A DNA stretch of 20,718 nt from a plasmid. The notes beneath the pieces were generated by a model. It saw only the letters and a program-made list of their open reading frames with translations. It was not told the DNA's origin and did no database searches. Made by a program: the position numbers and the translations under genes. Location: the sequence record CP127617.1. One strand, written 5' to 3'. Of this stretch, positions 2,441-5,973 are shown piece after piece (the stretch's first letter is position 1; every line of letters starts with the position of its first letter).

Positions 2441-3201
2441 TGAGCTTTTTATGACCCCACACAAAAACATTTTCGAAGCCTTGAAATATCTGGCTTTGCC
2501 AGATCCCCCATTCATTGATGGGGACAAATTTCCCTTATGCTCTTACGGAGATTTTAGAGTTAAATTAAAATTTCTAAGTTTTTGATAAGAAAAGCCCTGC
2601 AGGAATTTAGAAGAACGTGGGGAAGTTTTAAAGAATTTTATGCTAATTTTTAATTTGCATGTAAATGGGCAGTGTCTAAAAAATAGTTATTGTTTTTGCT
2701 CAAATTTTTGTTTTTGAAAATAGCATATATTTATTTGGCTCATATTTGCGTTTTAAAAGCGTATATAAGTTTTAGATATAAAACTATATGAATCACCCCT
2801 AAATCTTTAAAATGCCCTCTTAAAATTCAAAATAAGGGCATAAAAAATAAAAGCCCCCCAGATAAAGTGAGGTAGCTTTTTCTTTCGACGCCGTATCGTC
2901 GATGTAATTCAAAAAAGTTATGGGCTATAAATCTACATCACTTTTTCAAGAATGTAGTAGCAATATTCAACGCAAATTAATTTTTATAACTGCTCGGAAT
3001 ATCTCAAGCCGTTTCTTTAATTTTGAAATAAAAAAATCGACGAAGGTCGATTACGTTTTTGCACATGTCGATTTATCCGACGTATAAGTGCGCCCTTACG
3101 GGATTTAACTAGATTATAACGACGAATTTTAGACCTGTAAAGCAATAACAATTAGGTCTACCAGGTAGATAAAGTGTACAAAGTAGAACCGAAAAAGTTA
3201 T

Positions 3202-3462: not shown

Positions 3463-3552
3463 CGTCAATAAAGCAATTGGAATAAAGCACCTATGATTAT
3501 TTAAAAATATAAGTTATAATACATTCAAAAATATTTTTGAATGAGGTGTATT

Positions 3553-4170
3553 ATGATTCAAACGGTTGTTGCTGCTGCTGTTCTTTATATTGCTACAGCA
3601 GTTGATTTATTAGTAATTTTATTAATATTTTTTGCTAGAGCAAAGACTAGAAAAGAATATAGAAATATTTATGTTGGTCAATATTTAGGGTCTATTATTT
3701 TAATATTAGTTAGTTTGTTTTTAGCTTTTGTATTAAATTATGTTCCAGAAAAGTGGATATTAGGTTTATTGGGTTTAATACCAATTTATCTTGGAATTAA
3801 AGTGGCTATTTATGATGATTGTGAAGGAGAAAAGAGAGCTAAAAAAGAATTGAATGAAAAAGGATTGTCTAAATTAGTTGGTACGGTTGCAATTGTTACG
3901 ATAGCAAGTTGTGGCGCCGATAATATTGGTTTATTTGTTCCGTATTTTGTGACATTAAGTGTTACTAATTTATTACTTACTCTGTTTGTCTTTTTAATTT
4001 TAATTTTCTTCTTGGTGTTTACTGCACAAAAATTAGCTAATATCCCAGGAATTGGAGAAATTGTTGAGAAATTTAGTCGTTGGATTATGGCTATCATTTA
4101 TATAGCTTTAGGTTTATTTATTATTATTGAAAATGACACTATTCAAACAATTTTAGGATTTATATTTTAA
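3553..4170 (+). CDS. cadD: Cadmium resistance transporter CadD
   Basis: MIQTVVAAAVLYIATAVDLLVILLIFFARAKTRKEYR.. multi-TM protein matching staphylococcal CadD over its full ~205 aa. SD GAGGTG is 4 nt upstream of the ATG at 3553. Confidence 0.9.
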   Translation: MIQTVVAAAVLYIATAVDLLVILLIFFARAKTRKEYRNIYVGQYLGSIILILVSLFLAFVLNYVPEKWILGLLGLIPIYLGIKVAIYDDCEGEKRAKKELNEKGLSKLVGTVAIVTIASCGADNIGLFVPYFVTLSVTNLLLTLFVFLILIFFLVFTAQKLANIPGIGEIVEKFSRWIMAIIYIALGLFIIIENDTIQTILGFIF

Positions 4171-4188
4171 TTTAGGGTGTGATTTTAT

Positions 4189-4536
4189 ATGAGTTATGAA
4201 AATACTTGTGATGTGATCTGTGTACATGAGGATAAAGTTAACAATGCTTTAAGTTTTTTAGAAGATGATAAATCTAAGAAATTACTTAACATTTTAGAAA
4301 AAATTTGTGATGAGAAGAAATTGAAAATCATATTATCTTTGATTAAAGAAGATGAGTTGTGTGTTTGTGATATTTCTTTGATATTGAAAATGAGTGTTGC
4401 TTCAACTTCACATCATTTAAGGCTTTTATATAAAAATGAGGTACTTGATTTTTATAAAGATGGAAAGATGGCATATTATTTTATTAAAGACGATGAAATA
4501 AGAGAGTTTTTCTCTAAAAATCAGGAGGGTTTTTGA
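4189..4536 (+). CDS. cadX: ArsR/SmtB-family metalloregulator CadX
   Basis: 115 aa. ELCVCDISLILKMSVASTSHHLRLL is the ArsR-type metal-binding/HTH signature. Immediately downstream of cadD, as in the cadDX operon. Confidence 0.85.
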   Translation: MSYENTCDVICVHEDKVNNALSFLEDDKSKKLLNILEKICDEKKLKIILSLIKEDELCVCDISLILKMSVASTSHHLRLLYKNEVLDFYKDGKMAYYFIKDDEIREFFSKNQEGF

Positions 4537-4629
4537 AACGAGTTTCTTCTTGTCTTGATACTATAAAAAACAAAGTTATATAACATAAGACGACTTATCG
4601 GAAGTTATCTATCATCGTATATTCGGAGA

Positions 4630-4638
4630 TGATATAAT
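4630..4638 (+). promoter_or_regulatory. Extended -10 promoter (TGaTATAAT) for the type I toxin mRNA
   Basis: TG-n-TATAAT at 4630-4638, about 58 nt upstream of the toxin start. The 5'UTR can fold to sequester the SD (CTCTC..GACGC-AGAGAG). Confidence 0.5.
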
Positions 4639-4695
4639 ATACAGGTCGCCTATCTCTCAGGCGTCAATTCAGACGCAGAGAGGAGGTGCATTACT

Positions 4696-4788
4696 TTGCT
4701 AATCATTTTCGTTCACATCATAGCACCAGTCATCAGTGGCTGTGCTGTTGCGTATTATACTTATTGGCTTAGTAAACGCAACAAATAA
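4696..4788 (+). CDS. Type I toxin, PepA1 (SprA1)/Fst-like 30-aa membrane peptide (M)LIIFVHIIAPVISGCAVAYYTYWLSKRNK, TTG start
   Basis: SD GGAGGTG is 6 nt before the TTG. The peptide is near-identical in pattern to S. aureus PepA1 (MLIFVHIIAPVISGCAIAFFSYWLSRRNTK), with a hydrophobic helix and a basic tail. Confidence 0.75.
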   Translation: MLIIFVHIIAPVISGCAVAYYTYWLSKRNK

Positions 4789-4815
4789 TTAATAGGCGAC
4801 TTTATAAGCCAGCAT

Positions 4816-4881
4816 CGAAAAAATCCCCACACTATTGCAGTAGTGTGGGGATTGGTGCATTAATTGTTAATCATTTTCGTT
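4816..4881 (-). ncRNA. Antisense antitoxin RNA (SprA1AS-like), about 65 nt. Its 5' end is complementary to the toxin start-codon region through the repeated segment 4868-4881.
   Basis: Minus-strand sigma-A promoter: TTGCAT (comp. 4912-4917), 18-nt spacer, TATAAT (comp. 4888-4893). The transcript carries the complement of TAATCATTTTCGTT (identical to 4700-4713). It ends at the hairpin 4824-4851 plus T-run. Confidence 0.55.
4824..4851 (-). terminator. Intrinsic terminator (TCCCCACACTA-ttgcag-TAGTGTGGGGA) with T6 on the minus strand
   Basis: 11-bp perfect GC-rich stem. The A6 run at 4818-4823 is the T-tract for the minus-strand transcript. Confidence 0.6.
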
Positions 4882-4999
4882 ATCTAGATTATAACACTGG
4901 TTAGTAGAGGAATGCAAAAAGATAATATTTTAAGTAGTCTTTTTGGATATTATCATATGATATATTTATGTAAATTGATTTTTTATTAAAGGAGCATAT

Positions 5000-5524
5000 A
5001 TGAGTAATACTAAAATTAAATATCAAATTTTTATTTCATCAACTTATTTAGATTTAATAGAAGAGCGTCAAGCAGTAGTAGAAGCAGTTTTAAACAGTAA
5101 TAATATTCCAGCAGGTATGGAACTTTTTAACTCAAGTAGTAAAAGCCAATGGGAAATAATAACACAATGGATCAATGAATCAGATGCAGTGATATTATTG
5201 TTAGGTTCTAGTTATGGAACAATTGATAGTGAAGAAAATATTAGCTATACAGAAATGGAGTACAATTTTGCTAAATCTTTAGGTAAACCTATATATGTTT
5301 TTGAGATGAATAAAGCATCTACCGAATCCGCGGAAAAGTCTAAAAAATTAGATGAGTTTAAGACAAAAGTTAAAGAAAATAGACTAATTAGTCCAAATAT
5401 TAATGATATTTCGGAATTAAAAAGTAAAGTATCTCAGACTTTAATGCAAAGTGTACCTAGTGAAATTAAAGAAAATAGTGGATGGATAAGAGTACAGGAT
5501 TGTGGTAAAAATGTAAAAAATTAA
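5000..5524 (+). CDS. DUF4062-type domain protein (conserved FISST motif; proposed TIR-like fold), 174 aa
   Basis: KIKYQIFISSTYLDLIEERQAVVEAV.. carries the SST motif and acidic EER segment typical of DUF4062. A later hydrophobic core strand reads ESDAVILLLGSSYG. SD AAGGAG lies upstream of the ATG. Confidence 0.7.
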   Translation: MSNTKIKYQIFISSTYLDLIEERQAVVEAVLNSNNIPAGMELFNSSSKSQWEIITQWINESDAVILLLGSSYGTIDSEENISYTEMEYNFAKSLGKPIYVFEMNKASTESAEKSKKLDEFKTKVKENRLISPNINDISELKSKVSQTLMQSVPSEIKENSGWIRVQDCGKNVKN

Positions 5525-5529
5525 AAAAA

Positions 5530-5973
5530 TTGGATGCTATACAAAGAGATTTAGATACATATGATTTTTTGAAAGAAGAACTTTATAAAATATTCATGTA
5601 TGTAAAAACTTTTTATTTCCAGCACACACCATTTGATGATAGTTATATTGAAGATATAGAAAACTACCTGCTAAATTATGAAAATAATCCACATAAATCA
5701 TTCATGAAAATAAAAGTTTATGATTATAAAAACTTTTTAAAACATTTAAAAAACATATTGATTTTAATTAAACAAGGAAAAAAGCCATTAGCTCAAGCCG
5801 GTCATTTTAAATTAAGCTTTTACGAAGAGGATTTAAAATTGTTACAAAAAAATTATAAGACTACGCTAGTCGATATTAAAGGATTGAATAAACATTTTTA
5901 TAAGGAATGTGATAGGTGCTTAAAAGCATATAATATTTTTATTGAGGGTATAAATAAACATTTATATGAATGA
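5530..5973 (+). CDS. Hypothetical 147-aa protein. It may be the C-terminal part of the upstream DUF4062 protein (it is in the -1 frame relative to 5000-5524).
   Basis: The ORF begins at a TTG with no SD, 6 nt after the upstream stop. The -1 frame is open from 5509. A6 and A7 runs (5515-5520, 5523-5529) lie at the junction. No recognisable motifs except CDRC near the C-terminus. Confidence 0.45.
   Translation: MDAIQRDLDTYDFLKEELYKIFMYVKTFYFQHTPFDDSYIEDIENYLLNYENNPHKSFMKIKVYDYKNFLKHLKNILILIKQGKKPLAQAGHFKLSFYEEDLKLLQKNYKTTLVDIKGLNKHFYKECDRCLKAYNIFIEGINKHLYE

Follow-up and report, generated by a model that had tools for sequence, protein, structure and literature searches.

Architecture and predicted antisense regulation of an Fst-family type I toxin-antitoxin cassette on a pMW2-type plasmid of Staphylococcus aureus

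Layout of the cassette and its two predicted RNAs

In a 20,718-nucleotide (nt) stretch of plasmid DNA (sequence record CP127617.1; the whole stretch is referred to below as the window), we analyzed a candidate type I toxin-antitoxin locus that a preliminary description, made from the sequence alone, had placed at positions 4600 to 4920. The whole conserved cassette spans positions 4586 to 4920 and uses both strands: it comprises a toxin promoter, a toxin mRNA, a shared terminator, an antisense RNA, and the promoter of that antisense RNA. For the comparative analyses, the window was aligned with 14 plasmid homologs (15 loci in total, from 97% down to 68% identity). Conservation in this alignment starts near ACATAA..ACTTATCGGAAG and stops at ATGCAAA. 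Within these limits both promoters, the Shine-Dalgarno (SD) sequence, the 5' structures of the mRNA, and the terminator hairpin were conserved across the 15 loci.

The toxin open reading frame (ORF; 4696 to 4788, plus strand) comprises 30 codons from a TTG start and encodes (M)LIIFVHIIAPVISGCAVAYYTYWLSKRNK, a member of the Fst/PepA1 family with a PxxxGC motif, a conserved Trp, and a KRNK tail. The order of elements in the peptide is APVISGC, then YW, then LSKRNK, that is, a hydrophobic segment with PxxxG, the Trp, and a charged C-terminal tail. That TTG is the real start here is supported by the ATG found at the aligned start codon in diverged homologs. Upstream lies the SD sequence AGGAGGTG (4681 to 4688, plus strand), whose GGAGG is spaced 9 nt from the TTG and whose GGAGGTG is almost invariant in the alignment. 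Against the NCBIfam model NF033608 (Fst-family toxin), the peptide scored 58.2 bits (cutoff, 26). Among solved structures in the PDB, the best match was PepA1 (4B19; E = 5e-13), with 21 of the 28 aligned residues identical (75%), including HIIAPVISGCA; a weak second match was LdrD (E = 0.34). The same toxin is annotated as WP_001791613.1 in many plasmids. These matches bear out the initial assignment to PepA1/Fst-like type I toxins, but the accompanying claim that the peptide almost copies S. aureus PepA1 was overstated: as judged from the alignment, it is a PepA1 paralog with the same HIIAPVISGC core and not a near-copy. Other reading frames in the region, namely, an out-of-frame ORF with a GTG start (4686 to 4772) and small minus-strand ORFs, fit none of the conserved signals and were rejected.

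The candidate toxin promoter is an extended −10 element, TGATATAAT (4630 to 4638, plus strand), in which TG and TATAAT were at least 90% conserved or invariant across the loci. No good −35 element was found for it, and transcription would start at about position 4645. The strong SD, the TTG-initiated 30-codon gene, and the extended −10 that had been proposed at the outset are thus all present. The predicted toxin mRNA (RNA I, or SprA1-like; 4645 to 4853, plus strand; both ends predicted) is about 209 nt long and highly structured, with a minimum free energy (MFE) of −79.7 kcal/mol (z = −7.3 versus shuffles). Its 5' end, GUCGCCUAU (4645 to 4653), is an inverted repeat of AUAGGCGAC (4792 to 4800, just past the stop codon). 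These two plus-strand arms are complementary at nine of nine positions and would form a long-range helix that sequesters the mRNA 5' end, and 96% of cells in the alignment are paired in this helix. Immediately downstream, a 5' stem-loop (CUCUC/GAGAG and GCGUC/GACGC; 4654 to 4682, plus strand) is part of the MFE structure and covers the 5' edge of the SD; in its two helices, 97% and 94.5% of cells are paired, and each helix shows one compensatory pair. These 5' structures vary little among loci (94 to 97% paired), and their covariation support is weak. A further conserved plus-strand hairpin (GUUGCG.../...CGCAAC; 4746 to 4783) lies in the C-terminal coding region, within the match of an Rfam antitoxin model on the opposite strand (see below).

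The candidate antitoxin promoter occupies positions 4888 to 4917 on the minus strand, with TTGCAT (4917 to 4912), an 18-nt spacer, and TATAAT (4893 to 4888), exactly as the preliminary description had it. These hexamers are invariant or at least 90% conserved in the alignment, and the −35 matches only three of six consensus positions. The antitoxin RNA predicted from this promoter (RNA II, or SprA1AS-like; 4816 to 4881, minus strand; both ends predicted) would be about 60 to 66 nt long. Folded at 66 nt, it reached −22.3 kcal/mol (z = −5.8), with a 5' domain that stays mostly unpaired and, 3' of it, the terminator hairpin. In the MFE structure, RNA positions 9 to 28 are unpaired and positions 3 to 8 (CGAAAA) are weakly paired with the 3' U-run. 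The hairpin, shared by both predicted transcripts, has a 13-pair stem at 4822 to 4853 with a U-run (4821 to 4816) for the minus-strand RNA only; a GC-rich terminator had been recognized here earlier, with limits given as 4824 to 4851. It is paired in 100% of cells across the 15 loci, with compensatory changes at four pairs. Sub-threshold Rfam matches to RsaJ (36.9 bits versus 100), SpF66, NsiR1, and others were taken as chance or terminator-hairpin matches. The predicted antisense RNA avoids the toxin ORF and overlaps the 3' untranslated region (UTR) and terminator of the toxin mRNA by about 32 to 38 nt (4816/4822 to 4853). The earlier proposal of a nonoverlapping, trans-acting antisense RNA therefore stands in that the RNA lies outside the ORF and pairs with the initiation region, but the 3' ends of the two RNAs do overlap. 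"Trans-acting" is correct only as the term has been used in the literature, for an antisense RNA that is encoded in cis and exerts its effect through its nonoverlapping domain.

The predicted link between the two RNAs is a direct repeat. The sequence TAATCATTTTCGTT occurs as an exact 14-nt repeat at 4700 to 4713 and 4868 to 4881, where the duplication had first been noticed. It is the longest exact direct repeat in positions 4540 to 4960; dinucleotide shuffles of this region gave a mean of 8.4 nt, and 1 of 1,000 reached 14 nt. The repeat is in fact longer than first described: an 18-nt block at 94% identity (4696 to 4713/4864 to 4881) and a 12-nt block at 92% identity (4685 to 4696/4854 to 4865) join into a gapped repeat of about 29 and 28 nt with one indel (4685 to 4713/4854 to 4881), of which the 14-nt exact match is the core. 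The upstream copy (4685 to 4713, plus strand) spans the 3' edge of the SD, the TTG start, and codons 2 to 6 and is the predicted target site; the reverse complement of the downstream copy (4854 to 4881 on the plus strand) is the 5' domain of the antisense RNA. The duplex prediction suggested in the preliminary description paired this 28-nt 5' domain with 4684 to 4714 of the toxin mRNA at −30.4 kcal/mol, compared to −11.0 ± 2.5 kcal/mol for shuffled controls, none of which (0 of 1,000) was as good. For the full-length RNAs, the prediction of −70.7 kcal/mol was dominated by the perfectly complementary terminator arms. Since that full-length duplex would need both hairpins to be melted, the 5' domain was analyzed separately.

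Co-variation of the repeat copies among cassettes

Among the 15 plasmid loci, the two repeat copies match within each locus and differ between loci, giving eight distinct variants. Cognate duplexes formed from these variants were predicted at −31 to −39 kcal/mol and non-cognate duplexes at −15.2 ± 4.1 kcal/mol, and the cognate partner ranked first for every variant, one near-identical pair excepted. The covariation of the whole named structure exceeded that of all 500 shuffles and all slid controls. As an independent set, species-representative genomes were scanned with a degenerate DNA pattern; 26 loci were returned, of which 23 could be analyzed. In 22 of these 23, a matched repeat was found 58 to 93 nt past the stop codon; the sole exception, a locus from S. 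shinii (L024), had no matched repeat. Read together with the variants above, the co-variation of the repeat copies is as expected of a functional RNA-RNA specificity determinant.

Several PepA1-like cassettes in the scan (L021, L025, L027, L036, and L037; also L018 and L040) were located on short contigs of assemblies labeled Exiguobacterium, Streptomyces, Nonomuraea, Mesorhizobium, and Gemella. Some of these cassettes were identical to staphylococcal plasmid sequence, and one contig had a coverage of about 1.8. The likeliest cause of these misfit hosts is contamination of the assemblies with staphylococcal DNA.

Proposed mechanism, known relatives, and alternative readings

Taking the layout of the locus together with the comparative data, we conclude with high confidence (probability, about 0.9) that, as read from its sequence, the region from 4586 to 4920 is a self-contained type I toxin-antitoxin cassette belonging to the staphylococcal, SprA1/SprA1AS-like branch of the par(pAD1)/Fst family; this figure refers to architecture and mode of regulation. 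Under the proposed mechanism, the extended −10 promoter would drive a stable, highly folded mRNA of about 209 nt for the 30-residue membrane peptide. The mRNA would be long-lived, with its 5' end locked in a helix with the 3' UTR, and the 5' stem-loop would partly cover the SD. The convergent promoter would meanwhile drive a constitutive antisense RNA of about 65 nt that stops at the shared terminator hairpin. As the direct repeat is read in opposite directions, the 5' domain of the antisense RNA would be complementary to the 3' edge of the SD, the start codon, and codons 2 to 6, and pairing at this initiation region would block ribosome loading; the complementary terminator stem-loops may provide a second contact site. 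Upon plasmid loss, the short-lived antisense RNA would decay first, such that the stable mRNA would be translated and the toxin made. The predicted block of ribosome loading at the SD edge, start, and early codons has strong comparative support. We infer the transcript ends and the block of translation itself from the sequence features above, and the difference in RNA stability, the toxicity, and the plasmid-stabilizing role from the family by analogy.

The closest characterized relatives are the SprA systems. SprA1 is a 208-nt RNA whose 3' end is perfectly complementary to the last 35 nt of SprA1AS; even so, SprA1AS acts on the site of translation initiation and does so via its 5' domain (PMC3861533, PMC4885055). 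SprA2/SprA2AS works in the same mode without cross-talk to SprA1 (PMC6393315). Like both of these pairs, the locus encodes a 30-residue toxin with the HIIAPVISGC core, 75% identical to PepA1. The sizes also agree: the mRNA predicted here has 209 nt versus 208 nt for SprA1, and the 3' overlap is about 35 nt here versus 35 nt there (PMC3861533). Moreover, as in SprA1/SprA1AS, a short convergent antisense RNA pairs (in silico in the present case) through its nonoverlapping 5' domain with the SD and start codon (PMC3861533, PMC6393315). No S. aureus chromosome was among the results of the pattern scan, and the locus is tied to SprA1 through the PDB peptide and the published sizes rather than through a nucleotide alignment to the sprA1 sequence mapped by rapid amplification of cDNA ends. 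In contrast to SprA1 of the chromosomal S. aureus pathogenicity island, the locus described here is plasmid-borne, its toxin starts with TTG, and its peptide departs from PepA1 at 7 of the 28 residues aligned. SprA1 also differs in the sequence of the pairing region, and cross-regulation is therefore not expected, as shown for SprA1 versus SprA2.

The founding system of the family, par of pAD1, has convergent promoters, a bidirectional terminator, and the direct repeats DRa and DRb, along with a sequestered 5' end and a 5' stem-loop at the SD. Its homologs are reported to conserve these features, with specificity put down to the poor conservation of the DR sequences (PMC7472228). The family features published for SprA1, SprA2, and par are also described in PMC8594479. 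The locus in the window resembles par in its predicted convergent promoters, the hairpin of a putative shared terminator, the repeats that are read in opposite directions and are complementary over the initiation region, the SD 5' stem-loop, the sequestered 5' end of RNA I, and the plasmid location. Its toxin is only distantly related to Fst, bears PxxxGC (with Cys), and ends in a basic tail where that of Fst is acidic; unlike the two clearly separate repeats of par, its repeat is one block with an indel. The design, likened from the start to sprA1/sprA1AS and par(Fst), is thus reflected in matching anatomy that is conserved across loci and in repeat copies that co-vary. Fst-like loci of staphylococcal plasmids (VRSAp, pSK1, pMW2, pN315, and pLAC-p03) appear to be the same element, with no difference found; such loci were reported in 2009 and 2010, as cited in PMC4885055 (Weaver 2009, Kwong 2010, Jensen 2010).

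Several observations count against this interpretation. The consensus promoter scan listed neither the toxin nor the antitoxin promoter, both −35 hexamers matching fewer than four of six positions, and the two promoters were kept on the strength of their conservation. Pfam Fst_toxin (PF13955) scored the peptide at 13.9 bits, under its 36-bit threshold, so that family membership rests on NCBIfam. The terminator loop (plus strand, UUGCAG) lacks the YUNR U-turn motif, and the loop-loop initiation shown for par of pAD1 may thus not apply; this motif is not present in all par homologs (PMC7472228). On the plus strand, the sequence 3' of the terminator hairpin is UUGGUG, with no U-run, which leaves the 3' end of the toxin mRNA uncertain and makes read-through possible. 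The absent U-turn motif and the one-sided U-run set the locus apart from par of pAD1, and in all other respects tested the locus fits the known family. Finally, the large antitoxin excess of chromosomal SprA1 has been argued to make post-segregational killing unlikely in that system (PMC7472228), so that the plasmid-stabilizing role proposed here is suggested only by the plasmid location of the cassette.

Three alternative readings were weighed against these data. The repeat might be a passive relic of a local duplication and the promoter-like hexamers chance occurrences in AT-rich DNA. The region is indeed AT-rich, the promoter scan returned 4 sites versus 7.5 in shuffles with neither proposed promoter among them, and a 14-nt repeat was reached by 1 of 1,000 shuffles. 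However, the repeat copies change together in eight variants while the loci diverge to about 68% identity, the same arrangement recurs at the same distance from the stop codon in 22 further scan loci, and the −10 and −35 hexamers hardly vary and sit where they would set the start of transcription at the edge of the repeat. We therefore give this reading almost no credence. It is likewise very unlikely, if slightly less so, that the antitoxin is not the RNA at 4881 to 4816 but the one delimited by Rfam, a classical cis-antisense RNA over the 3' end of the toxin ORF. In favor of this view, the curated model RF01797 (fstAT) matches positions 4839 to 4739 of the minus strand from end to end, at 88.5 bits versus a gathering score of 72. 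That match, though, begins in the loop of the terminator hairpin, with a U-run at model positions 16 to 22, near the 5' end. An RNA from the only conserved minus-strand promoter (4917 to 4888) must read through the 13-bp terminator to reach the fstAT region, and the match has no promoter of its own, no promoter-like element being found between 4840 and 4881. The match is antisense to the C-terminal codons of the toxin, and its main helix is the reverse complement of the coding-region hairpin at 4746 to 4783. Wobble pairs in this hairpin favor the plus strand (seven alignment cells with G·U on the plus strand only versus two of the opposite kind), which is modest evidence. In addition, published descriptions locate RNA II and SprA1AS outside the ORF (PMC8594479, PMC3861533). 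The fstAT match confirms the family but not the RNA ends; it is best explained by the model picking up the conserved 3' part of the toxin sequence on the wrong strand. In these staphylococcal loci, the real antitoxin RNA probably has boundaries other than those of the model.

A third possibility accepts a working type I pair and assigns it a role other than plasmid maintenance, such as a stress response or persistence, a released cytolytic peptide, or phage or plasmid competition. The PepA1 and PepA2 toxins are stress responsive and cause lysis of their host cells, and a killing role for SprA1 was judged unlikely given the antitoxin excess (PMC7472228, PMC6393315). Two cassette copies are often present on one plasmid (PMC10135026), and a DUF4062 gene with a weak TIR-like (ThsB) match adjoins the cassette. 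Conversely, the system that founded the family, par of pAD1, serves a plasmid in post-segregational killing (PMC7472228), by far most occurrences of the cassette are on plasmids, and the linkage to DUF4062 is not general because the neighbors of the cassette are not conserved. We regard such a different role as possible but doubtful. By analogy with the family, post-segregational killing would be the likelier biological role of the cassette, a reading held with distinctly less confidence than its architecture and mode of regulation.

Plasmid setting, the second cassette, and significance

The cassette is carried by a pMW2-type cadDX-blaZ plasmid of S. aureus. The window was 99.4% identical to AF128883.1 ("Staphylococcus aureus 21kb plasmid"), reversed and rotated, and 421 nt around the cassette were 100% identical in several S. 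aureus plasmids. With these 421 nt as the query, plasmid records gave 1,223 matches by megablast and 1,498 by blastn, nearly all from Staphylococcus, and the toxin ORF in matching records is already labeled "type I toxin-antitoxin system Fst family toxin." A "Type I, Fst family" system is listed on cadDX-blaIRZ plasmids of about 20.6 to 27 kb, including pMW2, pN315, and pLAC-p03 (PMC8545097), and Fst-type systems were reported in 33% of plasmids of methicillin-resistant S. aureus, often in two copies (PMC10135026). With its toxin annotated and its RNA architecture published, this type of cassette is already known and is not new.

Genes flanking the cassette vary among plasmids (cadX, IS257, oxidoreductase, DUF4238, and DUF262), which indicates that the cassette of about 335 bp (4586 to 4920) is the mobile unit. 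In the window, the cadmium-resistance pair cadD (Cad transporter; E = 1.5e-75) and cadX (ArsR-family regulator) lies immediately upstream (3541 to 4536, plus strand). Directly downstream (5000 to 5973, plus strand) are a gene for a 174-residue DUF4062 protein (E = 9e-27), for which PADLOC gave a weak TIR-like ThsB match (E = 4e-4), and then an ORF of 147 residues without a family match. The DUF4062 gene is longer (205 residues) in plasmid p18809-P04. Judged by these matches, the two genes could be a defense-type pair. Elsewhere in the window, positions 2851 to 3074 (minus strand) gave a full-length match to Rfam RF02842 RefA1 ("Enterococcus sRNA A1") at 222 bits versus a gathering score of 94. 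At about 18561 to 18661, BLAST offsets versus AF128883.1 point to short repeats arranged in tandem at a period of about 44 nt, which may be iterons of a replication origin.

The window also contains a second, diverged Fst-like cassette (20190 to 20460, minus strand). It is 71% identical to the first, and an extended −10, an SD, a terminator, and a repeat pair are all present in it as well. The toxin ORF of this second cassette (ATG at 20386) ends after 23 codons, the conserved Trp codon TGG having changed to TAG (…LFGY*LHKRDKK). Relatives at 98.9% and 93% identity encode an intact 31-residue peptide with the Trp, and a relative at 90% is annotated with a coding sequence of equal length. Despite the nonsense mutation in the toxin, the repeat pair and terminator hairpin of the second cassette are intact. 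Its cognate duplex was predicted at −31.4 kcal/mol, compared to −8.5 and −10.5 kcal/mol for cross-pairing with the first cassette. Earlier publications on par and SprA1/SprA2 already imply such orthogonality of cassettes. A broader proposal, which we consider unlikely, is that the repeat pair is a rapidly evolving address code by which staphylococcal Fst cassettes fall into many mutually orthogonal classes (at least eight variants seen), with the second cassette as an orphan antitoxin. That such an orphan antitoxin might neutralize the addiction module carried by rival plasmids of its class is pure speculation.

Given that the toxin is annotated in well over a thousand plasmid records and that plasmids of the pMW2 and pN315 types are routinely noted to carry Fst-type systems, the discovery value of the locus is small. 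What the analysis adds for this plasmid type is explicit coordinates for an unannotated antitoxin RNA and its promoter, together with clear comparative support for co-evolution of the two repeat copies as a specificity determinant.

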